This document shows, piece after piece, positions 7,865-40,005 of a stretch of 64,000 bases of DNA. Location of the stretch: contig JBAYIQ010000004.1 in assembly GCA_041665545.1 (NCBI GenBank), forward strand, positions 18,132 through 82,131, written 5' to 3'. How positions within the stretch are numbered: the stretch's first letter is position 1; the number at the start of each line of letters is the position of its first letter. A model generated the notes under the pieces. That model made no database searches and had not been told where the DNA came from. It was given only the letters and a program-made list of their open reading frames with translations. A program made the translations under genes and the position numbers. The DNA is from Patescibacteria group bacterium. Its GTDB lineage: Bacteria > Patescibacteriota > Patescibacteriia > UBA1558 > GWA2-36-10.

Positions 7865-7893
7865 TGACAATAATCTTAATAGGTGATATAATA
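7865..7893 (+). promoter_or_regulatory. Exact consensus sigma70 promoter (TTGACA-17-TATAAT) for the 7923 gene
   Basis: TTGACAATAATCTTAATAGGTGATATAAT sits about 30 nt upstream of a GGGAGG Shine-Dalgarno and the ATG. Confidence 0.6.
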
Positions 7894-7922
7894 TAGTGTT
7901 TCCATAACCGGGAGGTTCTTTC

Positions 7923-8183
7923 ATGGCAGACCGTAAGGGTCCTTCGGCTGTAAGCTCGGTCTTCATCTGGCTGGCGTATTTGTCGGCAATTGCCGGCGAA
8001 TCCCTTCTTCTCTGCAAGACTTGGTGGGAGTTTGCGGCGCTTGTGGGCATTGGCGTCGCTGTTTTCTTCCTCGTCGCGTTCTTCATTGGCCTATTTAGCA
8101 TCAAGCGCCACGGCGCCGTCCATGTCCTGCTGATAGCAGTACTCGTGCTTTCGGCAATGACTCACCTGGCCATCTTCGCGTGA
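7923..8183 (+). CDS. Small high-GC membrane protein (two predicted TM helices), unknown function
   Basis: An 86 aa ORF with its own consensus promoter, Shine-Dalgarno and terminator. It has two hydrophobic segments (VSSVFIWLAYLSAIAG, VGIGVAVFFLVAFFIGLF...VLLIAVLVLSAM). GC is well above the flanking DNA. Confidence 0.5.
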   Translation: MADRKGPSAVSSVFIWLAYLSAIAGESLLLCKTWWEFAALVGIGVAVFFLVAFFIGLFSIKRHGAVHVLLIAVLVLSAMTHLAIFA

Positions 8184-8211
8184 CAACACATCACCCAGAA
8201 TGGAGAATCGG

Positions 8212-8257
8212 CCCCGTAAGTGTACGCAACGCTACGGGGTCTTAATTTTGTTTAATT
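8212..8257 (+). terminator. Rho-independent terminator of the 7923 gene
   Basis: CCCCGTAAGTGTACGCAACGCTACGGGG hairpin followed by TCTTAATTTTGTTTAATTT. Confidence 0.6.
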
Positions 8258-8274
8258 TATCATGAGTTAGCTAA

Positions 8275-8385
8275 CCCAGTTAGAAATTTACCTTAGTTGG
8301 CATATGAGATAAACTTATATAAGCAACTAAGTGACAATTTTACTAATAATACGGCATAAAATATTCAAAATAATTTCTAACTGGG
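8275..8385. repeat. Inverted-repeat element of the CCCGTTAGAAATT family (copy E1)
   Basis: CCCAGTTAGAAATT at 8275-8288 and its reverse complement AATTTCTAACTGGG at 8372-8385 flank a 83 bp AT-rich interior. The arms match copies E2-E5 at 34666-34745, 46548-46626, 47786-47889 and 47896-48044. Confidence 0.5.
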
Positions 8386-8439
8386 CTAATATTAGCCAAA
8401 AGTATTGCTTCTGTAAAGAAATGGCAGTAAATATAGGGA

Positions 8440-8468
8440 TTGACAAAATTTGATAAAGGGTGTATAAT
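8440..8468 (+). promoter_or_regulatory. Exact consensus sigma70 promoter with extended -10 (TTGACA-17-TGTATAAT) for the 8652 gene
   Basis: TTGACAAAATTTGATAAAGGGTGTATAAT. It is followed by a leader of about 180 nt containing the palindromes TATCTATTATATAGATAG and CTTTACATGGTGTAAAG, then the Shine-Dalgarno AAAAGGAGAG and the ATG. Confidence 0.6.
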
Positions 8469-8651
8469 TTTATGTTACTTTAAGTACCTTAATATTTACT
8501 TGCAAACAGCCATAATAGCCCCAGCGTTTAGATTATCTATTATATAGATAGTTTAACCGCTGCGGCTATTCGATAGTCGCTTCTACTGGTGTGCCTTGTG
8601 TCTTTACATGGTGTAAAGATAAGAGGTGTACCGAAAAAAGGAGAGAAAACC

Positions 8652-9242
8652 ATGGCTCGTCAGAAGAGTGAGTTCGTGAGTGCCCTGGGCACGGCCTTCG
8701 AGATGATCAAGCTGATCGCCGAGGAGGTCTACTTCCTGGGTGGTAACGACAACAACATGCGGACGATCCTCAAGGATCGCAAGCTGCGTCAGCAGATCGC
8801 CAAGTTGTTGGTCGCCAACACCGGTGATGTCTGCGCGTTGGACATCTTCGGCAAGAGCATCGATGAGCTGGTAAGGCAGGGTAACTACGACTGGGCCAAC
8901 AACAGCATCAACGACCACAACTTCAAGGCGGACGAGATGCACCAGACCGAAGTCTTTCTCAAGCACTTCGGCCAGAACATGAGTATGGAGGCCGTGCTCA
9001 ATGCTCTGGATGCCGACGGCCTGCGTCCGGCGACCATGTCCGAGCTGCTCGGGTTCGGCATTCGCTATCCCGAACTGCAGCGGCAGTTCCCCATCGTGGC
9101 CCTCGGCTCTGTCTTGCAGTTTACCGGTGGTGGACGTCGTGCCGGTTGCCTCTACGGCAGTGCTGACGAGCGCAGGCTCGGTCTGAACTGGGTCGACGGT
9201 GACTTGAGCGGTGCCTATCGCGTCGCTGCTGTTCGCAAGTAA
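8652..9242 (+). CDS. High-GC hypothetical cytoplasmic protein (197 aa), unknown function
   Basis: ORF track 8589..9242; the start is set at MARQKSEF, directly after a strong Shine-Dalgarno. There is no TM segment and I recognise no motifs. The clearly elevated GC gives the codon usage of a high-GC organism. Confidence 0.5.
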   Translation: MARQKSEFVSALGTAFEMIKLIAEEVYFLGGNDNNMRTILKDRKLRQQIAKLLVANTGDVCALDIFGKSIDELVRQGNYDWANNSINDHNFKADEMHQTEVFLKHFGQNMSMEAVLNALDADGLRPATMSELLGFGIRYPELQRQFPIVALGSVLQFTGGGRRAGCLYGSADERRLGLNWVDGDLSGAYRVAAVRK

Positions 9243-9313
9243 CTGGCACTTGGCCACTTGTGTCCTCGGGACTTGATTGTCCCTTTGACACTTGGCCTCG
9301 GCCAAATCGCAAG

Positions 9314-9359
9314 ACTCCGCTTTAATCGCTTCAGTGTGATGGGCGGAGTTTTCTTTTTT
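9314..9359 (+). terminator. Rho-independent terminator of the 8652 gene
   Basis: ACTCCGC...GCGGAGT hairpin followed by TTTCTTTTTT. Confidence 0.55.
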
Positions 9360-9384
9360 AAATAAAAAAACGCCAACCCCATAC

Positions 9385-9468
9385 TGTCATTCCCGCGAAA
9401 GCGGGAATCTACTATTATTATACCAATGGCAAATCAATGGTAGATCCTGGATCAAGTCCGGGATGACA
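9385..9468. mobile_element. MITE-like palindromic element, family A, full copy
   Basis: An 84 bp element with terminal inverted repeats TGTCATTCCCGCGAAAGCGGGAATCTAC / GTAGATCCTGGATCAAGTCCGGGATGACA. Each arm is a GC-rich hairpin. A second copy lies at 7714-7780. Confidence 0.5.
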
Positions 9469-9528
9469 ATGAAAAACGGCGAATTAAAAGTCTAGTATTC
9501 TTGCGAGAAACCAAAACCCCGCACCAAC

Positions 9529-9603
9529 TGGTCCCCTCACCAGGAATCGAACCTGGATCTAGAGCTTAGGAGTCTCTTGTTCTATCCATTGAACTATGAG
9601 AGG
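9529..9603 (-). tRNA. tRNA-Arg (anticodon CCU)
   Basis: A manual cloverleaf fits. The acceptor stem is CCTCTCA/TGAGGGG, followed by T8 A9. The D-stem is GTTC/GAAC. The anticodon loop CTCCTAA gives anticodon CCT. The T-arm is CCAGG-TTCGATT-CCTGG, and the discriminator A and CCA are encoded. The plus strand shows the diagnostic GGAATCGAACC. Confidence 0.8.
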
Positions 9604-9722
9604 GTCAAGTGGTGCGGGGCAAACTCCAATCCAATCTACAAAGCACACGAGTGCCCTGTTTATTAAAAATAAGGGCTAGTTGTTTGTCCCTAATATTAGC
9701 TAATAGTTTGAGTCGTAATATA

Positions 9723-9851
9723 TTACTGAAGCATTTTGGTCAAAAACTGAGTACGGCTCTCAATCATATAAACTACCAAATAAATTACTAGGATTGCTCC
9801 AACAATAATTCCCAACCTTTTTAGTTCTGCTTTAATATTTTTGTCAGTCAT
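9723..9851 (-). CDS. Possible small single-TM protein (42 aa)
   Basis: ATG...TAA ORF MTDKNIKAELKRLGIIVGAILVIYLVVYMIESRTQFLTKMLQ on the minus strand, not in the track because it is under 60 aa. It has a hydrophobic core and no obvious Shine-Dalgarno. Confidence 0.2.
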   Translation of the reverse strand: MTDKNIKAELKRLGIIVGAILVIYLVVYMIESRTQFLTKMLQ

Positions 9852-9985
9852 AATAGTGTTTATTAATTAATGCCGTGTAATTTTAGTATATACGGCTGTT
9901 TTTGTCCATGGTTTTTTGTATTTCTTTGACAATTTTGGCTCCTTAAACTAAAATTAAGGTCGTTAATTTATAATAAAAAAATAAT

Positions 9986-10429
9986 ATGTTTGGTAAAAAA
10001 GAAGCAGTAGTAAGCACAAAAAATATTGAAACAATAATCGGCCCCTCGGTAAAAGTAGAGGGTAATTTTGCGGGTGAAGGAGATTTGGTCATTGAAGGTA
10101 TGCTGGTTGGCACCCTAAACACCAAAAATAACCTCAAAATCGGCTCTAGTGCCGTAGTAGAGGCCACTGTCCGGGCCAATAACGCCTTTATTGCTGGCCG
10201 AGTCAAGGGCAATATCACTATCAAAGGGCGACTAGAAATCACTAGCTCAGCCGTAATTGTCGGCGACATCAAGGCCGCGGTTCTGTCCATAGAGAGTGGC
10301 GCCTTGATTCAGGGCAATGTGGCTATGCCTTTCGGCGAAGCAAAACACGAGGAACACCGCCCTAATCCCAAAAAAGAAGTGAAGCGAGCTGAAAATGAGT
10401 TGCCCGAAGAAAAACCTTTGGAGTCATAA
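9986..10429 (+). CDS. Bactofilin (polymer-forming cytoskeletal protein)
   Basis: Repetitive beta-helical bactofilin (DUF583) core GNFAGEGDLVIEGMLVGTLNTKNNLKIGSSAVVEATVRANNAFIAGRVKGNITIKGRLEITSSAVIVGDI, with a charged C-terminal tail. Confidence 0.7.
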   Translation: MFGKKEAVVSTKNIETIIGPSVKVEGNFAGEGDLVIEGMLVGTLNTKNNLKIGSSAVVEATVRANNAFIAGRVKGNITIKGRLEITSSAVIVGDIKAAVLSIESGALIQGNVAMPFGEAKHEEHRPNPKKEVKRAENELPEEKPLES

Positions 10430-10437
10430 ATTTTGTT

Positions 10438-11184
10438 ATGTATCTTTACATATACGATTCATTTTTGAGTGACAAAAAATATTCTGACCTCTTAGCCCAA
10501 ATTGAAAAACGCGTTACTGACTTGGGCATCAAGGGAAGAATTGCGCGTCTTTCGATTCTAAAAAATATGAAGGAGTTGATCACCGACGGAATCAAGTCTG
10601 GTGTTCAGACTGTGGTGGTCATTGGCAATGTTCAAACTTTTGCCAAAGTTATTAATATTGTGGCTGGCTTGGAAGTGGTGCTTGGTTTGATACCAGTGGA
10701 GAACGACAACAAGATTGCTAAGATGCTGGGCATACCACCAAAACTTTTGGCCTGCGATGTTATTGCTTCGCGCATTATAAAAAAAATTGACCTCGGTCTA
10801 ATCAATGGTCATTTTTTTGTGGGGCAAGCAGAAATTAATGATGCCAATGTTTTGATTGAGTATGACGGCTACAATGTGCGACCAACTACGGCTAATAATA
10901 ATATTACTATTTATAATTTTGCCGAGCGTTGTATAATACCAAATTCAACACCAGTTGATGGCGTGCTGGAGGTAGTGATCACACCAATGAAGTCTGGCGT
11001 CTTTGGTAAAAAAAATATTACTGGCACTATTTTACCTTTTTCCAAAATTAAAATAAGCACCGAGGGCGAGGAGCAGGTCTCCATCTTGACTGACGAACAG
11101 GTGATCATGAAGACGCCGGCTGAGATAAGTGTGGCGCCCCAAAAACTCCGAGTGATAGTGGGTCCAGAAAGATGTTTTGAATAA
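10438..11184 (+). CDS. Diacylglycerol-kinase catalytic-domain (DAGK_cat/YegS-like) family protein, divergent
   Basis: N-terminal fold pattern ...GVQTVVVIGNVQTFAKVINIVAG... resembles the DAGK_cat GGDGT region, with the motif degenerate. Confidence 0.4.
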   Translation: MYLYIYDSFLSDKKYSDLLAQIEKRVTDLGIKGRIARLSILKNMKELITDGIKSGVQTVVVIGNVQTFAKVINIVAGLEVVLGLIPVENDNKIAKMLGIPPKLLACDVIASRIIKKIDLGLINGHFFVGQAEINDANVLIEYDGYNVRPTTANNNITIYNFAERCIIPNSTPVDGVLEVVITPMKSGVFGKKNITGTILPFSKIKISTEGEEQVSILTDEQVIMKTPAEISVAPQKLRVIVGPERCFE

Positions 11185-11211
11185 AACCTAGTTTAGATAA
11201 CTAGTTTAGAT

Positions 11212-11251
11212 GTGCAAAAAAACCGCCTAAATTGAGGCGGTCTTTTTTTTG
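11212..11251. terminator. Bidirectional rho-independent terminator between convergent genes
   Basis: A-run, hairpin ACCGCC-TAAATTG-AGGCGGT, then TCTTTTTTTTG. It serves the plus-strand gene ending at 11184 and minus-strand yidC, whose stop lies within the stem. Confidence 0.7.
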
Positions 11252-11922
11252 AAACCCAGCACCATATATTGCTGGAGTATTGAGAAAAGTGTAGTAAATA
11301 GCCAATAAAGCGTCAAGCCAGCCGGCAAATTGCCACCGATGACGATCGTAAAAATCGGCATAAAATAAATCATCTGATTGGTCATTATTTTGGACATGCC
11401 GGTTTGTTGTGATTTGCCCATCAACATCTTGGACTGCCAAAATTGAGCCACTCCGGCTAATATAGCAATGATCCAATTCTTGCTAGCCAAATTAATAAAG
11501 CCAAAAGCAATTATGTTTAGTTGGCCGGGATTTTGAACAAAAGAATACAAGGCGCCATTGCTGTTGTCTTTGGTCAAGCCGTTTAAAAAAACTTGGTACA
11601 GGGCAATCAAAAATGGTAATTGTATTAAGGTTGGCAAACAAGAAGAAAAGGGATTTATTTTTCTTTCTTTGTAGAGGGCCATAAGCTCAGGCGCCATCTT
11701 TTCTTTGTCATCTTTGTATTTTTCTTTGATCTTTTCTATTTCCGGTTGAATGGTTTGCAATTCTTTTTGCGACTTGATGGCTTTTTGAGAAAAGGGATAT
11801 AAGGCCAATCTAATAACCAAAGTGATTAGAATGATGGCCACGCCCAAATCCTTACCAGGAACCAGGTTGTACAAAAAAATCAGTAAGTTGTAAATTGGTT
11901 GATAAAAAATTGTGTAAAACAT
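11227..11922 (-). CDS. yidC: Membrane protein insertase YidC (short form)
   Basis: AIILITLVIRLALYPFSQKAIKSQKELQTIQPEIEKIKEKYKDDKEKMAPELMALYKERKINPFSSCLPTLIQLPFLIALY matches the YidC/Oxa1 conserved core. Genomic context is rpmH-rnpA-yidD-yidC. Confidence 0.85.
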   Translation of the reverse strand: MFYTIFYQPIYNLLIFLYNLVPGKDLGVAIILITLVIRLALYPFSQKAIKSQKELQTIQPEIEKIKEKYKDDKEKMAPELMALYKERKINPFSSCLPTLIQLPFLIALYQVFLNGLTKDNSNGALYSFVQNPGQLNIIAFGFINLASKNWIIAILAGVAQFWQSKMLMGKSQQTGMSKIMTNQMIYFMPIFTIVIGGNLPAGLTLYWLFTTLFSILQQYMVLGFKKKTASI

Positions 11923-11925
11923 ATT

Positions 11926-12201
11926 TTATTTGATTGGATCAATTCCGCCCTTTGACCAGGGGTTACAGCGCGCTATGCGCCAAAGCGATAAATAAATTCC
12001 TTTTATGGTTCCGTGTTTTTCAAACGCCTGTCGACTATATTCCGAACAATGCGGATGAAAGCGACAAAAACCATGGGGGAAAAATATTTTTAAGTATCCT
12101 TGGTCTGGCGAAAATATTTTTTGATAAATTTTAATTAAAAAAATAAATATACTAGCCAACAAGTGGTCGATTATCTTTATTGCTCTTAACATTGCTTTCA
12201 A
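11926..12201 (-). CDS. yidD: Membrane protein insertion efficiency factor YidD
   Basis: A 91 aa protein with FCRFHPHCSEYSRQAFEKHG...RCNPWSKGGIDP (YidD signature). It overlaps the rnpA 3' end. Confidence 0.8.
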   Translation of the reverse strand: MKAMLRAIKIIDHLLASIFIFLIKIYQKIFSPDQGYLKIFFPHGFCRFHPHCSEYSRQAFEKHGTIKGIYLSLWRIARCNPWSKGGIDPIK

Positions 12202-12538
12202 TATACAGGCGAGTTGTTTTTAAAGCAAATTGGAATTGCTTCTGCAAATCTGGCAGAGTAAGCCCAACACAGCTTTTTTTGGCTATAAACAAAATGTCTA
12301 CTCCGACTTTAATTTTGCTTAGTTCTGGTCTAATGGCCTCCCGCATACGACGCTTGGTCTTGTTTCTAACAACGGCCCGCTTATCCACCTTAGTAGAAAC
12401 AACAAAGCCCAGACGTAGCAAATTTTGGTTATTATATTGATATTTGAGGGTTAATTGGGGTAAAAAAAAAGTTTTGCCCCCACGGACCAAGTTTTTGATA
12501 TCCTTATCTGCGTGTAGCCTAAATTTTTTAGGCAACAT
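12152..12538 (-). CDS. rnpA: Ribonuclease P protein component
   Basis: KRAVVRNKTKRRMREAI matches the RnpA RNR motif. It is positioned between rpmH and yidD. Confidence 0.85.
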   Translation of the reverse strand: MLPKKFRLHADKDIKNLVRGGKTFFLPQLTLKYQYNNQNLLRLGFVVSTKVDKRAVVRNKTKRRMREAIRPELSKIKVGVDILFIAKKSCVGLTLPDLQKQFQFALKTTRLYIESNVKSNKDNRPLVG

Positions 12539-12541
12539 AAT

Positions 12542-12682
12542 TTAGAGACTTATTTTCTTTCGGCCCCTGGCTTTTCGTCTTTTCAAGACTTTTCGACCAT
12601 CTTTGGTGGCCATGCGCTTCATAAAGCCGTGCTTTCTGGCTCTTTTTCTTTTTTTTGGTTGGTATGTCCTTTTTGTTGCCAT
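12542..12682 (-). CDS. rpmH: 50S ribosomal protein L34
   Basis: A 46 aa ORF missed by the 60 aa track cutoff: [46 protein letters not shown], near-consensus L34. It is immediately upstream of rnpA. Confidence 0.85.
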
Positions 12683-12841
12683 ATAAAATTAAATTACCTA
12701 AATAAAATAACATATTTACTTAATTTAATCAAGGGGAGTCACCAACTTGATTATACCCACATTTTATTAACAATTTATGCACTCTCGGTCTTATTTGAGC
12801 ATTTAAAAATATGTGGTATATTTACTGCAGTTTGTAAAAAC

Positions 12842-14212: not shown

Positions 14213-14445
14213 ACTGTTGACTAGTTGGTGGGCGCTTGTGTAAATCTCCTGGAAAATAATTTTTTTTAAAAGACAAGATTAAAATCGCGACTTTCTGCAC
14301 AGAGTTATCAGGTGGTCGTGCACAAGACAAATAGATAAATAAACACAAAATCACTGAACAAATACTTTATACAGCTCAAACTTATCAACATATGCACCGC
14401 GCCTACTACGGCTATATAATATATATATAAATTAATAATAAGTAT

Positions 14446-15552: not shown

Positions 15553-15721
15553 CTTGTGGAAATGTTTTTTGGCAAATTATTATAAATTTGCTATAATATA
15601 TTGACACTCGAAAATACCTGCGTCGAACAGGGATTTGTCGGGCGCTATAGAGATATGTAATTTCAGAAATGAAGCAAGAAACATCCGTGCGCGATCTAGG
15701 GTGTTTTTTGTTTTATATAAA

Positions 15722-15756
15722 TGAAACCCGCCCACAGAACCGTAGTTCTGGGGCGG
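15722..15756 (-). terminator. Rho-independent terminator of the 15778..16248 gene
   Basis: ACCCGCCCACAGAAC-CGTA-GTTCTGGGGCGGGT hairpin. On the minus strand it is followed by TTTCATTTATATAAAACAAAA (T-rich). Confidence 0.55.
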
Positions 15757-15777
15757 GTGAGGGGTGGAAGTGGGGTC

Positions 15778-16248
15778 CTACTTCTTGGGCTTGATCTTGG
15801 CCAGGCTGGCGGTCTTGAAGCGCCCGAAGGCGCGCTTGACCTGGCGCTTGTAGTCCAGGCCATAGTGGACGGCCAACCACTGTCCCTGAAGCGCGAGCAC
15901 TTCGGGGTCGAGATGGAATTTCTTCCAATCCCTGAGAAGGTGGGCGGTCATGGCCGGCTTGATCCGAGTCACGCGGCGTCGGTTCTTGCTAGCGTCAGGC
16001 TTGACGCGGGCCAGCCGTTTGCGCAGCTTGCCCTGCCTGGAATGCAAGCCGCGAACCTCTTGTCGCAGACGAGAGCGCTGGGCGGATTGACGTCTGTTGG
16101 CCAACTCCAGGCGCGAGATCCTGGCCTGAGACGCTGCCAAACCGGCGGCCAGGTCTTTGAGCGCTTTGTCCACACGGCGCTCGAAGCGGGTCTGTGCTGC
16201 TGCTGTTGAGCGACGCAACGCTGGTAAGGATTGTTTTCGACGGGTCAC
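15778..16248 (-). CDS. High-GC basic coiled-coil-like hypothetical protein (156 aa), GTG start
   Basis: A strong Shine-Dalgarno (AAGGAGGA) lies 7 nt upstream of the GTG, with its own terminator and its own TTGACA-17-TATAAA promoter. GC is about 60%. The protein is very basic (RRKQSLPALRRS...RRQSAQRSRLRQEVRGLHSRQGKLRKRLARVKP). Confidence 0.5.
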   Translation of the reverse strand: MTRRKQSLPALRRSTAAAQTRFERRVDKALKDLAAGLAASQARISRLELANRRQSAQRSRLRQEVRGLHSRQGKLRKRLARVKPDASKNRRRVTRIKPAMTAHLLRDWKKFHLDPEVLALQGQWLAVHYGLDYKRQVKRAFGRFKTASLAKIKPKK

Positions 16249-16301
16249 GTAAGGTCCTCCTTGTGTTTGGGCGGAACAGCGGCTGAATTGCCGAACACTA
16301 T

Positions 16302-16330
16302 TTTATACACCATAATCACATTTTTGTCAA
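16302..16330 (-). promoter_or_regulatory. Near-consensus sigma70 promoter (TTGACA-17-TATAAA) for the 15778..16248 gene
   Basis: Minus-strand reading TTGACAAAAATGTGATTATGGTGTATAAA. Confidence 0.5.
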
Positions 16331-16372
16331 CAGTAAATTGCCCAGATATTTTAAATTTGTTATTATAAGGGC

Positions 16373-16939
16373 ATGATAGCTTATCTGAAGGGTAGTGTAT
16401 TAAAAAAAGACCAAAAAGCCACCATTATAAACGTTAATGGCGTTGGCTATGAGGTTTTTTTGAAAAATAAGGACATTGCCAATCTCCAAATCAACGAATT
16501 TGTGGAGTTTTTCATTCATTCTTATATAAAAGAAGACGCCTTAGACCTATACGGCTTTGTTAATCCAGAAGAATTAGCTTTTTTCAAGCAACTACTTCAG
16601 GTGTCTGGTGTTGGCCCAAGGACGGCCATGAGCGTCATGTCTTTGGCTGAAGTGTTGGATTTGAAGAGGGCCATTACCAGTGGCAATCCCAGCTTCTTAC
16701 AACAAGTCTCTGGTATTGGCAAAAAAACAGCCGAGCGCCTGGTGGTGGAGCTGAAGGAAAAATTTATTGATGAGGTGTCGGCCGACGGTGCTCTTATCAA
16801 CACGGACCAGCAAGTAATATCGGCCCTAGTCTCCTTGGGCTACAAAGAGCGCGAGGTCATGGACATGACCAGGGGCCTGGAACTAGAAGGCGATTTGTCA
16901 GACAAAATAAAACAAGTTTTAAAAAATACCAAAAAATAA
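16373..16939 (+). CDS. ruvA: Holliday junction DNA helicase RuvA
   Basis: MIAYLKGSVLKKDQKATIINVNGVGYEVFL (domain I), followed by the helix-hairpin-helix motifs LLQVSGVGPRTAMSVMS and VSGIGKKTAERLVVEL. Confidence 0.85.
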   Translation: MIAYLKGSVLKKDQKATIINVNGVGYEVFLKNKDIANLQINEFVEFFIHSYIKEDALDLYGFVNPEELAFFKQLLQVSGVGPRTAMSVMSLAEVLDLKRAITSGNPSFLQQVSGIGKKTAERLVVELKEKFIDEVSADGALINTDQQVISALVSLGYKEREVMDMTRGLELEGDLSDKIKQVLKNTKK

Positions 16940-16941
16940 TT

Positions 16942-19983: not shown

Positions 19984-20016
19984 GGGTTTTTTAGTAAAAT
20001 AAAGTTTTTAAAGCAC

Positions 20017-20056
20017 GTGGCGGTGCTTGCACCGTTAGACGCAAGGCGTCTAACGG
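20017..20056 (+). terminator. Rho-independent terminator after the Mur-ligase operon
   Basis: GCACCGTTAGACGC-AAGG-CGTCTAACGGTGTG is a strong hairpin. A T-run (GGTTTTTGTGG) lies slightly downstream. Confidence 0.5.
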
Positions 20057-20215
20057 TGTGGATAAAGTGTGTGCAAAGAGTGGTTTTTGTGGATATTTTA
20101 GCAAAAACTAGTTAAAATTTGACAAACGTAAAAAATTGTATATACAGTATTTTTAGCTAATATTGGCGATTTATTTACAAAAAAAATATTTATAGCAAAA
20201 AAATGGGTTAAATCC

Positions 20216-20244
20216 TTGACATGGACCCTAAATTTTGTTATCAT
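20216..20244 (+). promoter_or_regulatory. Putative rpoB promoter (TTGACA-17-TATCAT)
   Basis: TTGACATGGACCCTAAATTTTGTTATCAT lies about 150 nt upstream of the rpoB ATG. Confidence 0.4.
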
Positions 20245-23833: not shown

Positions 23834-23854
23834 ATAAATTAGAGAATAAAATAT

Positions 23855-27745: not shown

Positions 27746-27747
27746 AA

Positions 27748-27777: not shown

Positions 27778-27852
27778 AGGGATGGGTTTTATTTTTATAC
27801 TAGATTGTGATAAAATACACTGATAAGATAGCTGTATAATAAGCTTTTTATT

Positions 27853-30084: not shown

Positions 30085-30087
30085 GCC

Positions 30088-30765: not shown

Positions 30766-30814
30766 TTAATAGCAAGCTTTCGCAGGCAGGTTTGCAGAAA
30801 GGAGCTATTTGTAT

Positions 30815-31840: not shown

Positions 31841-31867
31841 ATTTTTTTACAAAACATTCCCGCCGTA

Positions 31868-31915
31868 GTTGATCGTGCTTGACGCGATGACGCGGCGGGT
31901 TTGTTTTATTCGCGA
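31868..31915 (+). terminator. Rho-independent terminator after recA
   Basis: CCCGCCG...CGCGGCGGG is a long GC stem, followed by TTTGTTTTATT. Confidence 0.6.
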
Positions 31916-31935
31916 CAAATTAGTATAATAGACTC

Positions 31936-33357: not shown

Positions 33358-33358
33358 A

Positions 33359-34648: not shown

Positions 34649-34665
34649 TATAATATACACATGTA

Positions 34666-34745
34666 CCCCGTTAGAAATTCACGGGGATTAAATAATTGCC
34701 AAGCAAGTAGTATATTAGCTTATTATAATGATGATTTCTAACGGG
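34666..34745. repeat. Inverted-repeat element of the CCCGTTAGAAATT family (copy E2), ending at the galU start
   Basis: CCCCGTTAGAAATT at 34666-34679 is itself a local hairpin (CCCCG-TTAGAAATTCA-CGGGG). Its partner ATTTCTAACGGG at 34734-34745 is followed immediately by GTGAAAAAGAT. The 25-mer ATTTCTAACGGG[G/A]TGAAAAAGAT is nearly identical to the one at 46615-46639. Confidence 0.5.
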
Positions 34746-35612
34746 GTGAAAAAGATTAGGAAGGCAGTAATTCCGGTGGCGGGATTTGGCACTAGATTTT
34801 TACCAGCCACCAAGGCTCAGCCCAAGGAAATGTTGACCGTGGTTGACAAGCCGATCATCCAATATATTGTGGAAGAAGCCGTGCAATCGGGCATTGAAGA
34901 GATAATTTTTGTTACTTCAGCTAATAAACGCGCTATTGAAGATCACTTTGATCGCAATTTCGAGCTAGAATACCGCTTGCGACAAAAAGGGAAAAAAACC
35001 GAGCTGGCCGAGATGCTGAAAATTTCGGACATGGCCAAATTTATTTATGTCCGCCAAAAAACACCAAAGGGCTTGGGGCATGCCGTACTGACTGCTCGAG
35101 AGCTGATCGGCGATGAGCCGTTTGTGGTGATTGCTGGTGATGACATTATTGACTCTAAGGTGCCGGCCATAAAACAACTAATGCGGGTTTATGAAAGGTA
35201 TGAAGATATAGTTTTGGGCGTCACCAAAGTAGATAAAAAAGAAACTTACAAATACGGCATTATTGATCCTATAAAAATTGACGAGCGCACAGTCGAGATA
35301 AGAAGGCTGGTCGAAAAACCCGCTTCCAACAAAGCGCCTTCTAACTTGGCAGTCACTGGTCGCTATATATTGACCCCAGAAATATTTGATTTTTTAGCCA
35401 AACAAAAGCCCGGTGCTGGTGGTGAAATACAATTGACTGACGCCATTGCCCGCTATATCAAAGAACGGGCTGGCTACGCCTGTCTTTATGAGGGAGATTA
35501 TTATGACTGTGGTAACAAACTAGAGTTTATGAAGGCCATTATAAATTTTGGTCTAAAAAGATCGGCCTTTAAGAAAGAGTTAAAAAAATATTTACGTCAA
35601 ATAGTAAATTAA
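34728..35612 (+). CDS. galU: UTP--glucose-1-phosphate uridylyltransferase
   Basis: KAVIPVAGFGTRFLPATKAQPKEMLTVVDKPIIQYIVEEA is the GalU N-terminal signature. An alternative in-frame GTG start at 34746 directly follows the repeat element. Confidence 0.85.
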   Translation: MMISNGVKKIRKAVIPVAGFGTRFLPATKAQPKEMLTVVDKPIIQYIVEEAVQSGIEEIIFVTSANKRAIEDHFDRNFELEYRLRQKGKKTELAEMLKISDMAKFIYVRQKTPKGLGHAVLTARELIGDEPFVVIAGDDIIDSKVPAIKQLMRVYERYEDIVLGVTKVDKKETYKYGIIDPIKIDERTVEIRRLVEKPASNKAPSNLAVTGRYILTPEIFDFLAKQKPGAGGEIQLTDAIARYIKERAGYACLYEGDYYDCGNKLEFMKAIINFGLKRSAFKKELKKYLRQIVN

Positions 35613-35613
35613 T

Positions 35614-36978
35614 ATGCGTGGCTACAAAATAATTACATTATTATTAATCGGGGTGTTTGTCATTACCTCTGGTTTTGGTTGCAAGGGTTTGGGCTGTTCT
35701 ACAGATAGCGCTAGTCAGCCCGTAGCCCTTACTTACTGGGGAGTTTGGGACAGTCCCACGCAAGTTTCTGGTTTGATTCAAGAATATCAGTCCAGTCACC
35801 CGACCGTAAAAGTCATCTACAAACAACTTCGCTATGAAGAGTACGAAAGAAAACTATTGGAAGCCTGGGCTGATGATAGAGGGCCAGATATTTTTGCCAT
35901 TCCAGCCAGCTGGCTCAATAAATATCAAAACCGCATCGTGCCCATGCCCAGTGTTGTCCAAATTCCAGTGCAGGAAATAAAAGGCACATTAAAAAAAGAA
36001 ACAGTCGTGACCGTACAAACAGTAAAAGGGCTTAAGGCCGATGAGGTTAAGGACCAATACGTTGATGTGGTCTACAACAACGTTGTTAAGAACAACCAAA
36101 TATATGCCCTACCCTATTCGCTAGACACGCTAGTCACTTTTTACAATGAAGATTTACTTGATCAGGCCAGCTTGCCAGAAAAAATTGTTACCTTCAATGA
36201 TCTAGTGGATCAGACTAGCCAGCTGACCAAAGTGACTACGGACAACAAAATAGTTCAATCAGGCGTGGCCTTGGGTACGGCTGACAACATACCAAGATTT
36301 TTTGACATAGTTTCTAGTTTGATGCTTCAAACCGAGGTCAATCTGAAAGGGACAAAATTTAATCCAAGTAGTGGAGAGCAATCAGCTGCTCGTTTTCAGG
36401 AGGCCATAAATTTTTATATTAGTTTTGCTCGTCCGGGCTTGGCTTCGTATTCTTGGGACAAAAGTCTGCCCAATGCTTTTGATATGTTTAGCTCTGGTAA
36501 ATTAGCTTATTTTTTTGGCTATAGCTATCACGCGGATGCTTTGCGTAAAGCGGGCGTGCCATTTGAGTGGGGTATTACCAATTTCCCACAAACCGAAGGG
36601 TCGCAAGGCACAAAATACTACGCTGATTACTGGGTCAATGTTGTAGCCAAAAAATCCAAGAATCAAGGCGTGGCTTGGAACTTTGTGCAAAATACAGCCA
36701 GCGCCCAAAATGTCAAAAAATATTTGGATCAAAATAAAAAACCAACTGCCTTGCGCTCTTTGATTACTGGTCAAAAAAATGATCCTGACATTGCCCCTTT
36801 TGCCAATCAGGTTTTGACAGCCGACAACTGGTACACTGGCTATGATTACCCCAAAGCCGAGGCGTACATGGCCGAGTTTATCAATGGACTAGCTGACAAC
36901 AAGATTGACATCAACAACCAAGCTGATTTGAAATTATTTATTGATAGAATAAATCAAACCTATCAACCCAATCAATGA
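35614..36978 (+). CDS. Secreted or lipoprotein-like protein resembling family 1 extracellular solute-binding proteins
   Basis: Signal peptide with Cys residues (ITSGFGCKGLGCS). LTYWGVWDSP...YEEYERKLLEAWADDRGPDIFAIPASW is typical of ABC sugar-binding proteins, but no permease or ATPase genes are adjacent. The stop overlaps the next ATG (ATGA). Confidence 0.45.
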   Translation: MRGYKIITLLLIGVFVITSGFGCKGLGCSTDSASQPVALTYWGVWDSPTQVSGLIQEYQSSHPTVKVIYKQLRYEEYERKLLEAWADDRGPDIFAIPASWLNKYQNRIVPMPSVVQIPVQEIKGTLKKETVVTVQTVKGLKADEVKDQYVDVVYNNVVKNNQIYALPYSLDTLVTFYNEDLLDQASLPEKIVTFNDLVDQTSQLTKVTTDNKIVQSGVALGTADNIPRFFDIVSSLMLQTEVNLKGTKFNPSSGEQSAARFQEAINFYISFARPGLASYSWDKSLPNAFDMFSSGKLAYFFGYSYHADALRKAGVPFEWGITNFPQTEGSQGTKYYADYWVNVVAKKSKNQGVAWNFVQNTASAQNVKKYLDQNKKPTALRSLITGQKNDPDIAPFANQVLTADNWYTGYDYPKAEAYMAEFINGLADNKIDINNQADLKLFIDRINQTYQPNQ

Positions 36979-37667
36979 AATACTTTAAAATAATAATTTT
37001 AGTAGCCGTTACTTTGCCCTTGCTAGCTTTTGCCCAAACAACACCACCAGGGTTTTTGGACACCTTGGGGGGAGATTGTATGAAAAACGGCGACTGTCAA
37101 CTAGCCGACGTAGCCACTGGTTTTATTTTGTTGACCAAGTTACTGCTCGGGGCTATGGGAGCCGTGGCTTTGCTGTATTTTGTAATTGGTGGCTTCCAGT
37201 GGATGACTTCCCAAGGCAACCAGGAAAGAGTGCGTAAGGGCCAGCAGACCATGACCAACACTGTTATTGCTTTGTGTATTGCCTTTACTAGTTATTTACT
37301 ATTGAACTTTTTTGTTAATGATATTTTGGGAGTAAAAAGTGATTACATGATTGGCGATGCTCCAACTCAGTGTGAAGGTAAGTCAGATGGGACGGCTTGT
37401 AATGTGGTTGCTGGTAGCACATATATAAACCCCTATGAATGTTTTTCGGGAGAGTGCGTCACTAAGTGTAAAGTAAAAGCCAACATGACCAGTTTGAATT
37501 GGCAGTGCTATACTGTGCCAAATCCAGAATTAATATCAACAGACACTACTTATTATGAAAGAAATTTGTGCCCCGGTGATGAATACACTGTTTGCACCTT
37601 GTTAAATGCCAGTGGAGAACCAGCTGATCCAGCTTATCAAGCGTTCCTACATCGTTTTGTTCCTTGA
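36975..37667 (+). CDS. TrbC/VirB2-like T4SS-pilin-family paralog 1, with Cys-rich C-terminal extension
   Basis: Signal peptide, then the conserved core GAMGAVALLYFVIGGFQWMTSQGNQERVRKGQQTMTNTVIALCIAFTSYLLLNFF (two TM helices around a GGFxWxTSxGN loop). A roughly 110 aa tail carries 10 Cys (QCEGKSDGTACN...ECFSGECVTKCK...WQCY...NLCPGDEYTVCTLL). Confidence 0.55.
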   Translation: MKYFKIIILVAVTLPLLAFAQTTPPGFLDTLGGDCMKNGDCQLADVATGFILLTKLLLGAMGAVALLYFVIGGFQWMTSQGNQERVRKGQQTMTNTVIALCIAFTSYLLLNFFVNDILGVKSDYMIGDAPTQCEGKSDGTACNVVAGSTYINPYECFSGECVTKCKVKANMTSLNWQCYTVPNPELISTDTTYYERNLCPGDEYTVCTLLNASGEPADPAYQAFLHRFVP

Positions 37668-37785
37668 TTATAAAATTATGCACATTCACTCCGTTAAATA
37701 AAATTTAAACACAGTTTAAATTTTAAATTTGCTACATGACCACATATAAATTATACGCCAATGAAAAATATAAAAAATAAATCTG

Positions 37786-37866
37786 TCATTGCGAGTCCCG
37801 TCGAGCTGAGCTCGACGGGATGTGGCAATCCCGATGAGATTGCTTCGCTCCGCTCGCAATGACAAT
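37786..37866. mobile_element. MITE-like palindromic element, family B
   Basis: An 81 bp element with perfect 12 bp terminal inverted repeats TGTCATTGCGAG / CTCGCAATGACA. It contains an 11 bp-stem hairpin TCCCGTCGAGC-TGA-GCTCGACGGGA. A related fragment (CCCCGTCGCG-TCAGA-CGCGACGGGG followed by CTCGCAATGAC) is at 7551-7583. It lies 10 bp upstream of the pilin paralog 2 start. Confidence 0.5.
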
Positions 37867-37875
37867 CATAAATAT

Positions 37876-38205
37876 ATGAAAAAAATAATAAATTTATTTT
37901 GGTTAGCCACTCTTCCTCTATCTGCTTGGTCGGCAACAGACGGGAAAATTGAGCTTGAAAACCCCGTATCAGCAGATAGTGTGCCAGAACTTATCAATAC
38001 TGTAATTAAAGCAATTTTAGGCATAGTCGGCGCCGTAGCTTTGTTGTATTTGGTGTTGGGTGGTTTCACTTGGCTGACTTCCCAAGGCAATCCGGAAAAA
38101 GTAAAAAAAGGCCGAGAGACATTGGTTTGGGCGATCTTTGGTCTAGCTATGATTTTCTTTAGCTACGTGATATTGAATTATGTCTTTACCGAATTTTTAA
38201 AATAA
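37876..38205 (+). CDS. TrbC/VirB2-like T4SS-pilin-family paralog 2
   Basis: ORF track 37822..38205; the true start is MKKIINLF, because the upstream part is the MITE. Signal peptide LATLPLSAWSA, then the core ILGIVGAVALLYLVLGGFTWLTSQGNPEKVKKGRETLVWAIFGLAMIFFSYVILNYVF. Confidence 0.55.
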   Translation: MKKIINLFWLATLPLSAWSATDGKIELENPVSADSVPELINTVIKAILGIVGAVALLYLVLGGFTWLTSQGNPEKVKKGRETLVWAIFGLAMIFFSYVILNYVFTEFLK

Positions 38206-38223
38206 ATATAATTTTTTTGGTTC

Positions 38224-38252
38224 TTGATGTTTTGTGGTTTTTAGACTATAAT
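38224..38252 (+). promoter_or_regulatory. Putative promoter for pilin paralog 3 (TTGATG-17-TATAAT)
   Basis: TTGATGTTTTGTGGTTTTTAGACTATAAT lies about 65 nt upstream of a strong Shine-Dalgarno (AGGGGGTGA) and the ATG at 38317. Confidence 0.4.
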
Positions 38253-38316
38253 ATTATTAGTAAAAAGTACCTTGTTATTAATTATTAAAATCCTAAAAAT
38301 GAAAGGGGGTGAAGAA

Positions 38317-38682
38317 ATGAAAAAATTATTAGTTTCATTAATGCTTTTAGCGCCATCAATGGCCATGGCTCAAGCTCCTGTTGTGGAAGATGACCCATTT
38401 GGTCGAAACACCTTACAAGAGCTTTCAACAGCTGGTGAAAGTAAAGATATATTTGTGGTTATTTCAAACATTGTTAATATTATCTTGACTTTCTTAGGCG
38501 CTATTGCTGTGTTGTTATTCCTTTATGGTGGATTCAAGTGGTTCACCTCTCAAGGTAATAGTGAGCAAATTGAAGCTGCCAAGAAAATCATGGGCGCTGC
38601 CGTTGTTGGCTTGGCCATTATTTTCGCTTCATACGCCGCCGCTCAATACATCTTCGATCAGTTGTCGAATCAACTTTTATAG
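38317..38682 (+). CDS. TrbC/VirB2-like T4SS-pilin-family paralog 3
   Basis: Start MKKLLVSLMLLAPSMAMAQA (signal peptide) after the Shine-Dalgarno. Core LTFLGAIAVLLFLYGGFKWFTSQGNSEQIEAAKKIMGAAVVGLAIIFASYAAAQYIF. Confidence 0.55.
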   Translation: MKKLLVSLMLLAPSMAMAQAPVVEDDPFGRNTLQELSTAGESKDIFVVISNIVNIILTFLGAIAVLLFLYGGFKWFTSQGNSEQIEAAKKIMGAAVVGLAIIFASYAAAQYIFDQLSNQLL

Positions 38683-38756
38683 TGGTATATTTGGATTCAA
38701 GACATATAGTCTAGACTATAGTAGGCAAGCTTTTTGCCTACTAAGGTGTGAATTAT

Positions 38757-39146
38757 ATGTATAAATATATTATTTCATTATTTCTATTGTTGCCCTTTAC
38801 TGTCCTAGCAGTGAATCCTTTGGATTCTTTGAATGAGGCAGCCGGAGGCACTGGCTTGGTGAGTAATAAAACTCCGATTCAGATTGTTACTAGCATCATC
38901 AACACCATCCTTTATTTTGTGGGGGCTATAGTTATTGTCCTGATGCTTTGGGCGGGCTTCAAGTGGATGACTTCAGCTGGCAACACTGAAGCCATCAAAA
39001 AATCTAGAGAAACTATTATCAATGCCGTGATTGGCTTGGTAATTATTTTTGCGTCTTATGTGATAGTCAATTTTGTGATGTTAAGACTTATTGAGGGTAT
39101 TGGTGTTGGTGGCACTGGAGGTTCTCCGGCGACAGTTGCTGATTAA
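38757..39146 (+). CDS. TrbC/VirB2-like T4SS-pilin-family paralog 4, Gly/Thr/Ser/Pro-rich C-terminal tail
   Basis: ORF track 38748 (GTG); the ATG at 38757 has the better Shine-Dalgarno (AAGGTG). Signal peptide ISLFLLLPFTVLA. Core LYFVGAIVIVLMLWAGFKWMTSAGNTEAIKKSRETIINAVIGLVIIFASYVIVNFV. Tail GIGVGGTGGSPATVAD. Confidence 0.55.
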   Translation: MYKYIISLFLLLPFTVLAVNPLDSLNEAAGGTGLVSNKTPIQIVTSIINTILYFVGAIVIVLMLWAGFKWMTSAGNTEAIKKSRETIINAVIGLVIIFASYVIVNFVMLRLIEGIGVGGTGGSPATVAD

Positions 39147-39169
39147 GGGTTCTAGTTAAATTTTTATAA

Positions 39170-39215
39170 AATAAAGCGGCTCCAGTCCATTGCGACTAGA
39201 GCCGTTTTTTCGATG
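39170..39215. terminator. Bidirectional terminator between pilin paralog 4 (+) and the 39230 lipoprotein (-)
   Basis: CGGCTCCAGTCCATTGCGACTAGAGCCG hairpin with an A/T-run on the upstream side and GTTTTTTCG on the downstream side. Confidence 0.5.
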
Positions 39216-39229
39216 AGGTGTGTGTTTTT

Positions 39230-39913
39230 TTATAGCCTGATACAGCCACCCCTGTCCAGCAGCATACCCTGATTGTTGTTGGGGATAAAGTCATTGATCA
39301 AGAAGACAGCGTCAACTGACCGACCCTGCCACGGCACCTTGTGTCCGGGCGCAAGATTTCGACAGCCACGGATGACTCGTCCTCTGTCTTCCCAAACCAG
39401 TACGAAGTCGCCAGCTGCGATGAAGATGATTTTCTCTTCGTGGGGACGAAGAGTAAACACCGGCCCTTGTATGTTTTGGAAGGTTTTGGTCTGAGAGCTG
39501 ATGTTTTTTACCACTACCTCTAGCCGCGCCCAGCCTTGCACGAGGAATTCATCAACGATAATTGGCTCGCCAGTGTACAGACCGACTACGTGGTTTTCTT
39601 CCCCGTGTAGCACCTGGTCATTTCCTACCCATGGAGCCGTCCAGATTTCGTAACGTATGTATTTTTGTGCTCTCGTTTCTACAGGGAAGTCCCTTCCGTA
39701 GGGGAGTGGGATCTTGGGTCCACCGTTGACTGACACAACGGCCCAGCCAATGTAGTGCCGTTGGAAGGTCAATGTGACGGTGGGTGGGTTATCGCCGTAG
39801 GGATGATCGAGAGCGCGACCCTGTTCGTCGCGGAACTCGGTGCCGAGGCCCAAGCAGCCACAAAGGGGCAACAGGGCCATCAGGCACAGGGAGATAAGCA
39901 CATAGCGACGCAT
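39230..39913 (-). CDS. High-GC lipoprotein, unknown function
   Basis: ORF track 39230..39925 (GTG); the ATG at 39913 (MRRYVLISLCLMALLPLCGC lipobox-like) is preceded by Shine-Dalgarno GTGAGGTG. GC is about 53%. It has its own exact TTGACA-17-TATAAT promoter. I recognise no domain. Confidence 0.5.
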   Translation of the reverse strand: MRRYVLISLCLMALLPLCGCLGLGTEFRDEQGRALDHPYGDNPPTVTLTFQRHYIGWAVVSVNGGPKIPLPYGRDFPVETRAQKYIRYEIWTAPWVGNDQVLHGEENHVVGLYTGEPIIVDEFLVQGWARLEVVVKNISSQTKTFQNIQGPVFTLRPHEEKIIFIAAGDFVLVWEDRGRVIRGCRNLAPGHKVPWQGRSVDAVFLINDFIPNNNQGMLLDRGGCIRL

Positions 39914-39976
39914 ATAGCACCTCACTTGTTGAATGTTCTTTTTTTAGGCCCAAAATAGGGCTTTTACTAACACTAT

Positions 39977-40005
39977 ATTATACACCACATAGCCAAAATT
40001 GTCAA
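39977..40005 (-). promoter_or_regulatory. Exact consensus sigma70 promoter (TTGACA-17-TATAAT) for the 39230..39913 lipoprotein gene
   Basis: Minus-strand reading TTGACAATTTTGGCTATGTGGTGTATAAT. Confidence 0.6.

Follow-up and report, generated by a model that had tools for sequence, protein, structure and literature searches.

Consensus promoters in the window

The stretch of DNA analyzed here (the window) is 64 kb of contig JBAYIQ010000004.1, from a small, 39.7% GC metagenome-assembled genome of the Patescibacteria, or candidate phyla radiation (CPR). Members of this group are uncultivated, reduced-genome episymbionts, and little is understood of how they regulate their genes or of the factors by which they interact with hosts. 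The window carries dnaA, dnaN, ruvA, rpoB, rpoC, ftsK, a PBP1 gene, uvrB, polA, holA and glycan-metabolism genes. We describe four consensus promoters in it, each of which heads a short unit, or cassette, with a single GC-rich open reading frame (ORF). The ORFs are named CAS1 to CAS4; the NCBI record of CAS2 is WCV69_03010, on a 113,935-bp contig.

Both strands of the window were searched with the pattern TTGACA-N17-TATAAW. Four matches were found, at 7864-7892 (+), 8440-8468 (+), 16302-16330 (-) and 39977-40005 (-), all with a 17-bp spacer; three agree with the consensus at 12 of the 12 hexamer positions, and the site at 16302-16330, with TATAAA as its -10 element, at 11. Dinucleotide-preserving shuffles gave an expectation of 0.03 matches per window and reached four in 0 of 100 cases, in agreement with an earlier sequence-only reading of this DNA that had put the chance expectation well below one. 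That reading had reported four exact promoters, each directly in front of a GC-rich gene; all were recovered in that position, but the first coordinate had been one base off (7864, not 7865), and the extended -10 TG ascribed to the 8440 site abuts the hexamer there, the canonical form (TGn) being found instead at 7864.

A Shine-Dalgarno sequence and the start codon of a GC-rich ORF follow each promoter 30-185 nt downstream. The layout is the same in all four units: promoter, 5' untranslated region (UTR), strong Shine-Dalgarno sequence, GC-rich ORF, and a GC-rich hairpin with a T-run, as in an intrinsic terminator. The features are listed below, with GC3 and A3 denoting the GC and adenine content of third codon positions.

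7864..7892 (+): CAS1 promoter, TTGACA-N17-TATAAT, 12/12, canonical extended -10 (TGa)
7893..7922 (+): CAS1 5'UTR, Shine-Dalgarno GGGAGG at 7910-7915
7923..8183 (+): CAS1 ORF, 86 aa, small hydrophobic membrane-type protein, GC3 0.67
8211..8252 (+): CAS1 intrinsic terminator, CCCCGTA...TACGGGG, then T-run
8440..8468 (+): CAS2 promoter, TTGACA-N17-TATAAT, 12/12
8469..8651 (+): CAS2 5' leader of about 183 nt, with a conserved AT-rich start through TTACTTGCAAA, two hairpins (hairpin 1 at 8515-8569, hairpin 2 at 8593-8627) and Shine-Dalgarno at 8638-8643
8652..9242 (+): CAS2 ORF, 196 aa, C-type-lectin-fold variable protein of the type targeted by diversity-generating retroelements (DGRs), GC3 0.79, A3 0.03
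9108..9239 (+): CAS2 C-terminal region homologous to a DGR variable region (VR), scaffold G.R..G.L...R.L.L...W....RFAAVRK with hypervariable positions
9268..9283 (+): CAS2 inverted repeat GGGAC-TTGATT-GTCCC, about 25 nt past the stop codon
9314..9360 (+): CAS2 intrinsic terminator, ACTCCGC...GCGGAGT, then T-run
16302..16330 (-): CAS3 promoter, TTGACA-N17-TATAAA, 11/12 against TATAAT
15778..16248 (-): CAS3 ORF, 156 aa, basic Arg/Lys-rich, GTG start, Shine-Dalgarno GGAGG at 16256-16260, GC3 0.75
15719..15757 (-): CAS3 intrinsic terminator, CCCGCCCCAGAAC...GTTCTGTGGGCGGG, then T-run
39977..40005 (-): CAS4 promoter, TTGACA-N17-TATAAT, 12/12
39914..39976 (-): CAS4 5'UTR, hairpin GCCC-TATTTT-GGGC at 39948-39961, Shine-Dalgarno GAGGTG
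39230..39913 (-): CAS4 ORF, 227 aa, lipoprotein with signal peptide and invariant G-C, two beta-sandwich domains, GC3 0.61
39167..39203 (-): CAS4 intrinsic terminator, CGGCTC...GAGCCG, then T-run

Native genes of the window have GC3 values of 0.23-0.53. By our own gene count, a perfect promoter precedes four of the six GC-rich ORFs and not one of the roughly 49 native genes (Fisher p = 4e-5), so that the association proposed earlier stands, but the word 'specifically' used for it was too strong, because two further GC-rich ORFs serve as counter-examples:

2152..2871 (-): CAS5, C39-like peptidase lipoprotein, GC3 0.65, no good promoter
57739-58236 (+): CAS6, GC-rich frameshifted pseudogene, promoter TTGACA-17-TAAGAT at 57640-57668, 10/12

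The CAS6 frameshift lies near 58015-58035 (GTATGGAGATGGAGATGG), and both frames together read as one protein of about 165 aa; CAS6 is apparently a decaying acquired unit with a degenerate promoter. Directly following CAS5 on the same strand is a very AT-rich ORF at 1430-2149 (-) (GC 0.28, GC3 0.24; no Pfam match), a sharp compositional junction in the opposite direction.

Promoters one mismatch short of consensus (11/12) occur at the native genes for csoR (7358-7386), bactofilin (9926-9954) and rpoB (20216-20244) and at a gene starting at 34728. The imperfect native promoters cited in the earlier reading, TTGACA/TATCAT for rpoB and TTGAAT-16-TATAAT for tyrS, were both reproduced. An extended sequence, GGTG[T/A]TATAA[T/A]ATAGTGTT, is common to three of the four sites, and its ATAGTGTT part varies among CAS4 orthologues. 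The form TTGACA-N15-TGnTATAAWATAGTGTT was considered as a mark of a mobile element and dropped: its five matches in unrelated metagenomes were at seemingly ordinary genes, and none was viral.

Conservation of the promoters and authenticity of the locus

Two relatives are collinear with the window, L004 (GCA_964540095.1) and L006, with core proteins 88-99% (mostly 94-99%) identical to those of the window. The CAS1 promoter is 12/12 and nearly unchanged in both; the promoter at the CAS2 slot is 12/12 in L006 and 11/12 in L004; and the CAS3 slot has an 11/12 promoter in each (TATAAA in L006, TATAAG in L004). For CAS4, three further genomes (L096, L098 and L102) also have 12/12 promoters, with varying spacers. 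In about 54 kb from relatives, all 12/12 promoters sit at cassette orthologues and none at native genes, and each cassette orthologue has a promoter that is 12/12 or one mismatch short.

The hexamers and the 17-bp spacing are unchanged over three to four genomes; the spacers are about 50% identical, and the upstream flanks cannot be aligned. Three-genome alignments place the conserved block between a point 3-4 nt before the -35 element and the terminator, which upholds the proposal that the promoter is part of the gene unit and not of the surrounding chromosome. Judged by their hexamers, spacing, placement and selective hexamer conservation, the sites have the make-up of sigma-70-type promoters. 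The proteins of the units are 34-66% identical among relatives while the hexamers and their spacing stay constant, and core proteins are mostly 76-99% identical.

Consensus promoters might simply be this organism's norm for strongly expressed genes, with the link to GC-richness being peculiar to these 64 kb. Several native genes do have 11/12 promoters, only about 118 kb of the clade is covered, and the extended motif occurs at seemingly ordinary genes in unrelated metagenome contigs. Set against the lack of any 12/12 promoter among the roughly 49 native genes here and in the 54 kb of relatives, and the 12/12 or one-mismatch promoter at every cassette orthologue, such a coincidence of sampling appears decidedly unlikely.

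The sharp GC contrasts and the textbook layout of promoter, ribosome-binding site and terminator look synthetic, and an assembly chimera, contamination or engineered DNA would be the trivial explanation. The dnaN-CAS3-ruvA locus is, however, 100% identical in independent Logan assemblies of other sequencing runs (SRR18595301 and SRR6484324), and positions 1-9569, cassette junctions included, are 100% identical in the assembly of SRR6484324. At least four other genomes also have the units, in synteny and with natural divergence, showing ratios of nonsynonymous to synonymous rates (omega) below 1 and compensatory hairpin changes. Because independent assemblies agree fully across the cassette junctions, we reject chimerism and engineered DNA, the alternative raised in the sequence-only reading, and give an artefact of any kind next to no credence.

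CAS1 and CAS3

In the alignment of the window with L004 and L006, the CAS1 block from 3-4 nt before the -35 element through the Shine-Dalgarno sequence shows one substitution over its roughly 65 nt, and the 27 nt between the stop codon and the terminator are identical. The ORF itself is about 70% identical, with a 12-nt in-frame indel in L004, and the sequence preceding the -35 element is unalignable. CAS1 orthologues are 59-67% identical, with omega 0.27-0.33 and synonymous divergence (dS) of 0.63-0.91. CAS3, whose product we take to be helical, is 63-66% identical to the copies in relatives and 63-80% over the genomes compared (omega 0.23-0.49) and has only five related clusters among 5.8 billion.

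Substitution rates of CAS1 and CAS3, estimated by the Nei-Gojobori method, were compared with those of eight core genes. The dS values were 0.53-0.91 for the cassettes and 0.29-0.90 for the core genes, and L004 and L006 are mutually closest in CAS1 and CAS3 as in the core genes. Since dS matches core dS and the relationships agree, CAS1 and CAS3 are, on these substitution patterns, vertically inherited and have co-diverged with the genome. Nonsynonymous divergence (dN) is about 5-50 times that of the core genes, with omega at 0.23-0.49 versus 0.01-0.10.

The codon-position GC of the cassette ORFs falls in the order GC3 > GC1 > GC2, and AF2 (AlphaFold) models of the cassette proteins are confident (pLDDT 81-87). 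Together with omega and the in-frame indel, these properties lead us to conclude that the ORFs are translated and fast-evolving. GC-rich islands in AT-rich genomes often mark structured non-coding RNAs, and ORFs are found on both strands of the islets, so that the reading frames could in principle have arisen by chance. We regard this as extremely improbable in view of omega of 0.23-0.49, the codon-position order, the conserved Shine-Dalgarno sequence and start, the 12-nt in-frame indel, the model confidence and the C-type-lectin fold predicted for CAS2, and Rfam gave no match. A tRNA or structured RNA behind the GC islets was set aside, ARAGORN and Rfam returning only a tRNA-Arg and the coding signatures being strong.

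A separate element adjoins CAS3. At 15569-15715 (+), a promoter TTGGCA-17-TATAAT with TG (11/12) is kept in all three genomes, and the roughly 115 nt behind it are about 95% identical between genomes, well above synonymous-site conservation. The segment terminates as a stem with a U-run, convergent with CAS3, and has no Rfam match; a small RNA may be encoded here, between dnaN and CAS3.

The CAS2 unit and its slot

The CAS2 slot holds three mutually unrelated ORFs in the window, L004 and L006, with no detectable homology among the three cargos (BLASTP E = 0.82; hhalign probability below 1%). Common to the three genomes are the promoter, the first 45 nt or so of the leader (through TTACTTGCAAA) and the T-rich end of the terminator, and the interior is replaced. 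Where the window has the CAS2 leader, a long hairpin of another kind is present in L004 and L006.

Two other genomes, L094 (a Candidatus Nomurabacteria genome, 37% GC) and L101 (a 574-kb contig, ENA ERZ27247744 k141_297756, 60% GC), have the complete CAS2 unit at chromosomal positions unrelated to this one: a promoter rich in AT, the leader with its two hairpins, a GC-rich ORF and the inverted repeat on the 3' side. The promoters there read TTGACA-17-TATACT and TTGCAG-17-TATAAT, respectively. Both leader hairpins are kept by compensatory changes in L094 (5843-6004) and L101 (4838-5004), across genomes of 37-60% GC, and no Rfam family matched; the leader may be a new RNA motif with a cis-regulatory or stabilising role. 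Because the whole unit recurs at unrelated chromosomal sites, the CAS2 cassette travels with its own promoter, as had been proposed for all of these genes; recent mobility is not supported for CAS1 and CAS3, in which dS equals core dS.

In L101 the CAS2 homologue, a distant one, has a GC3 of 0.84, the highest of its locus, with neighbours at 0.60-0.79. Since this value is close to that of the neighbours, GC-rich genomes, such as those of 60% GC, are a plausible compositional home of the family. A further copy, in L100 (43% GC), lies close behind a co-directional gene, has no evident promoter of its own and has a GC3 of 0.51.

CAS2 adjoins the 3' end of a tRNA-Arg(CCT) gene. No direct repeat of the tRNA 3' end was found, the segment occurring once in the window. 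The tRNA gene is located inside a longer inverted repeat, CCCCGCACCA...TGGTGCGGGG, at 9513-9620 (-), and the L004 allele (around 16400-16480) differs in the acceptor and T stems despite core proteins that are mostly 94-99% identical. The interval from csoR to bactofilin, which includes CAS1, CAS2 and the tRNA, forms one variable region. GC-rich palindromic elements resembling repetitive extragenic palindromes or miniature inverted-repeat transposable elements form a cluster in the window (7390-7790, 9385-9412 and 37785-37831); L004 and L006 lack them in the corresponding intergenic stretches. Several open with GTCATT and close with AATC[C/T]A, for example GTCATTCCTGCGAAGGCAGGAATCTA, and they account in part for the non-coding 'high-GC' signal at 7346-7860.

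CAS2 and diversity-generating retroelements

Alignment of the CAS2 family reveals a conserved body followed by a C-terminal scaffold interspersed with hypervariable positions. The homologue in L094, 58% identical, adjoins bAvd, a reverse transcriptase (RT) and a tyrosine recombinase; RT and Avd adjoin the homologue in L094/L095. In L094 the last 134 nt of the gene are repeated 516 nt downstream, giving a VR at 6453-6586 and a template repeat (TR) at 6969-7102, and 22 of the 23 TR/VR mismatches fall at TR adenines. Such adenine-specific mismatches are the hallmark of a DGR. Positions 9167-9240 of the window match both the VR and the TR of this element.

The AlphaFold model of CAS2 (pLDDT 86.9) matches C-type-lectin (CLec) and formylglycine-generating enzyme (FGE)-like folds, including the DGR protein TvpA, and no transmembrane segment or Pfam domain was detected in CAS2. 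By fold and family, CAS2 is a DGR-type variable protein. No TR for it was found in the 64-kb window, no DGR RT or Avd in the window or in the 2.7 kb beyond its start, and the VR is identical in a second sample. The window CAS2 is therefore a DGR target of the orphan, remote or inactive kind.

The active L094 target has exactly the window's inverted repeat, GGGAC-TTGATT-GTCCC (9268-9283). In DGR target genes, a VR with a GC-rich 3' end (IMH) precedes an inverted repeat able to form a hairpin or cruciform. In phage DGRs the target-recognition hairpin has a 4-nt GRNA loop (PMC3240598); the CAS2 repeat, with a 6-nt loop rather than a GRNA tetraloop, is by analogy a candidate target-recognition hairpin. 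A CPR-restricted DGR clade with targets lacking recognisable domains has been described (Roux et al. 2021, PMC8144416). CAS2 resembles DGR targets in its CLec/FGE-like fold, its C-terminal VR scaffold ending in ...RFAAVRK and, more tentatively, the inverted repeat downstream, and it shares with the CPR targets of that study (PMC8144416) the absence of a transmembrane segment or Pfam domain. It differs in having no TR, RT or Avd within the 64 kb and the same VR in two samples, and only one of the four cassettes is DGR-related. In a limited literature search we found no earlier description of a consensus promoter, two-hairpin leader or GC contrast on DGR targets.

L094 has, at about 11950-12240 (-), a separate small GC-rich hydrophobic ORF with a strong Shine-Dalgarno sequence in AT-rich surroundings; because of this further example, GC-rich mini-genes may be a wider Patescibacteria feature.

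CAS4

CAS4 occupies a slot between type IV secretion system (T4SS)-type pilin genes and a DUF2079 gene in four of four genomes (the window, L096, L098 and L102). Its UTR hairpin is kept in L098 and L102 via compensatory changes. Identity of the CAS4 proteins is 43, 59 and 34% in L096, L098 and L102, against 87-95, 61-85 and 59-84% for core proteins, so that the allele of the closest genome is more divergent than that of a more distant one, and the family alignment looks mosaic by eye. Since the identities are out of step with core-gene distances and the alignment is mosaic-looking, the sequences point to allele exchange at a fixed slot. Matches of the predicted fold were generic beta-sandwiches of low TM-score, and assigning a function from them was abandoned.

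The pilin-like genes directly upstream, at 36975-39146 (+), are four tandem paralogues of the T4SS-pilin/TrbC-like type with the motif GF.W[ML]TS.GN, and the arrangement is kept in the four genomes.

Genomic setting and comparison with known systems

Searches of the window for an integrase, attC-like repeat, RT, Avd, phage or plasmid gene were negative (tblastn E >= 0.03; Pfam, NCBIfam), as were those for shared flanking or attC-like repeats among the cassettes. The earlier suggestion of a promoter-bearing gene cassette or broad-host-range element as the setting is therefore not borne out. No phage, plasmid or viral-contig homologues of the cassettes were found (PHROGs, with nothing of note; viral contigs; INPHARED phages; PLSDB plasmids), and a phage or plasmid reservoir was rejected on these null searches. 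The four proteins have no meaningful Pfam, PHROG or PADLOC match, and membership in a defence system was dismissed, the sole PADLOC match being weak and uninformative. Each cassette family has just 5 to about 21 clusters out of 5.8 billion, and the only organism names attached to members are Patescibacteria or Candidatus Nomurabacteria. A role on the cell surface or in cell-cell interactions is probable for the cassette proteins.

These results bear on whether the cassettes are the cargo of an active mobile element, be it an integron, a tRNA-Arg island, a prophage or a DGR acting in cis. The tRNA-Arg(CCT) 3' end next to CAS2, the RT, bAvd and tyrosine recombinase beside the L094 homologue, and the slot content that differs among close relatives would all suit such an element. 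Yet the window holds no integrase, RT or Avd and neither a repeat of the tRNA 3' end nor attC-like repeats, homologues from phages, plasmids or viruses were not found, inheritance of CAS1 and CAS3 is vertical, and the VR is the same between samples; we consider active mobility of this kind very unlikely. An integron model was rejected with no tyrosine recombinase in the window and no shared repeats flanking the cassettes, and a tRNA-island model with the tRNA-Arg 3' segment single-copy and no integrase found.

The units do share features with integron cassettes: they are small, single-gene and of foreign composition, and the CAS2 slot, with one promoter followed by different ORFs, resembles Pc/attI with variable cassettes. 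Unlike integron cassettes, they have no IntI, attI, attC or array, each has its own promoter and terminator, and they are scattered. The exact TTGACA-17-TATAAT in AT-rich surroundings also recalls phage early or synthetic consensus promoters. Early promoters of lytic phages lie near consensus, and the exact sequence is rare among natural cellular promoters. The sites described here differ in being resident in the chromosome, conserved across related genomes and without phage context.

The closest parallel is offered by phage morons (the Hendrix/Juhala concept, summarised in PMC2920897): ORFs of deviant GC that lie between conserved genes, in some cases at hotspots, and are equipped with a promoter and terminator of their own. 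Each unit is likewise a single ORF with its own sigma-70-type promoter and factor-independent terminator, the units differ in base composition from their neighbours (GC3 0.61-0.79 versus 0.23-0.53), and the CAS2 slot, between conserved genes and with varying cargo, is hotspot-like. In contrast to morons, their place is a cellular chromosome, with dnaA, dnaN, ruvA, rpoB and pilin genes around them, presence/absence polymorphism among relatives was not found, and CAS1 and CAS3 have long been vertical. Since the phage context is missing and presence/absence polymorphism was not observed, the units work like morons and stand outside that class.

Base composition and origin of the cassettes

Our preferred explanation, held with moderate confidence, is that the four sites are genuine primary-sigma promoters on moron-like chromosomal accessory-gene units that probably entered from GC-richer relatives. 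For CAS2, the homologue in a 60%-GC genome fits such an entry, and the contents of a slot can be exchanged between lineages, as at the CAS2 slot and with CAS4 alleles. Polarised third-position changes run 59 GC->AT to 30 AT->GC in CAS1 and CAS3 together and 298 to 266 in core genes. CAS1 and CAS3 are thus off compositional equilibrium, GC->AT changes outnumbering AT->GC 2:1, which is consistent with slow amelioration of foreign DNA.

Several observations weigh against this explanation. An empty site was not found, every relative examined carrying cassettes; a search of genome contigs with RuvA returned only distant relatives (<=46% identity), none with dnaN beside ruvA. We infer insertion of the cassettes from composition and boundaries. 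No donor of CAS1, CAS3 or CAS4 was identified and no transfer event of these three directly observed, although their conserved block likewise starts at the -35 element. The 64 kb of this genome and about 54 kb from relatives that were compared contain no rRNA or ribosomal-protein operon, and CAS5 and CAS6 are GC-rich with no perfect promoter. As calculated from the third-position changes, AT sites of CAS1 and CAS3 turn to GC at about twice the core rate, and CAS4 GC3 holds at 0.61-0.73 even between genomes with no more than 59-84% identity in core proteins; simple import with neutral amelioration does not predict such lasting GC-richness across deep divergence. Because of this doubled rate and the deep persistence in CAS4, a force favouring GC may act on the cassettes.

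In its strongest form, such a force would make the GC-richness a selected or locally driven property, through mRNA stability or structure, codon or amino-acid need, or GC-biased repair or conversion linked to very high transcription or to retro-conversion, and not a foreign relic; perfect promoter and high GC would be two sides of one high-expression design. Even at dS of 0.5-0.9, all orthologues retain a GC3 of 0.61-0.79, and CAS4 remains GC-rich over deeper distances still; AT->GC changes per AT site are about twofold enriched over the core; and the CAS2 homologue, at GC3 0.84, tops its locus even in a 60%-GC genome. The 2:1 excess of GC->AT changes in CAS1 and CAS3 runs the other way, and all three codon positions and the amino-acid composition are shifted, as for genes from a GC-rich background. 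Moreover, the promoterless CAS2 copy in L100 is down to GC3 0.51, and rpoB and rpoC have ordinary GC3. We therefore judge selected GC-richness to be rather unlikely.

A bolder version treats the loci as a distinct class of Patescibacteria expression slots, in which the invariant promoter, leader start and terminator are both expression signal and homology handle for an integrase-free swap, from lineage to lineage, of GC-rich cargo that encodes surface or interaction proteins, DGR-type variable proteins among them. Selection, or a GC-biased process that may be linked to RT, would keep the cargo GC-rich, beyond mere inheritance from a donor. This scheme seems to us quite unlikely.

Under the explanation of accessory units with genuine primary-sigma promoters, consensus -35 and -10 elements at the optimal 17-bp spacing would give strong transcription by the host holoenzyme with no activator needed, and a strong activator-free promoter would suit a genome with few regulators. 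The UTR hairpin and strong Shine-Dalgarno sequence would favour mRNA stability and translation, and the terminator would insulate adjoining genes. Selection would then keep the expression signals constant while the proteins diverge fast. Invariant signals around fast-changing proteins suggest that high, unregulated expression is the selected trait.

Other features of the window

Cumulative GC skew is lowest near 7-7.5 kb, where csoR borders on CAS1, which suggests a replication origin or strand switch near the cassette region. The sole perfect DnaA box is at 20057, upstream of rpoB, with a one-mismatch box beside it (20057-20096). A cluster of DnaA boxes near the cassettes was considered and discarded, boxes not being enriched there.

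Two neighbouring minus-strand ORFs without annotation, 52222-52650 and 52745-53308, have their starts within a 112-nt direct repeat of 97% identity (52634-52745 and 53292-53403, spacing 658 nt) and are probably recent tandem paralogues.

Implications for Patescibacteria

The locus suggests that the RNA polymerase of Patescibacteria probably uses the TTGACA-17-TATAAT consensus, under measurable selection, and that expression signals can be conserved to a far higher degree than the products of the genes behind them. These findings carry the concepts of the moron and the DGR target into a new setting, with no basic change in current understanding. More such CPR genes can be sought by sequence, with perfect promoters, the contrast in GC3 and the leader with two hairpins as handles, and the promoters may serve as parts for CPR genetics. 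The strongest-looking promoters here are on fast-evolving accessory genes and not on the window's housekeeping genes, and the proteins of these genes are therefore candidates for abundant interaction factors.

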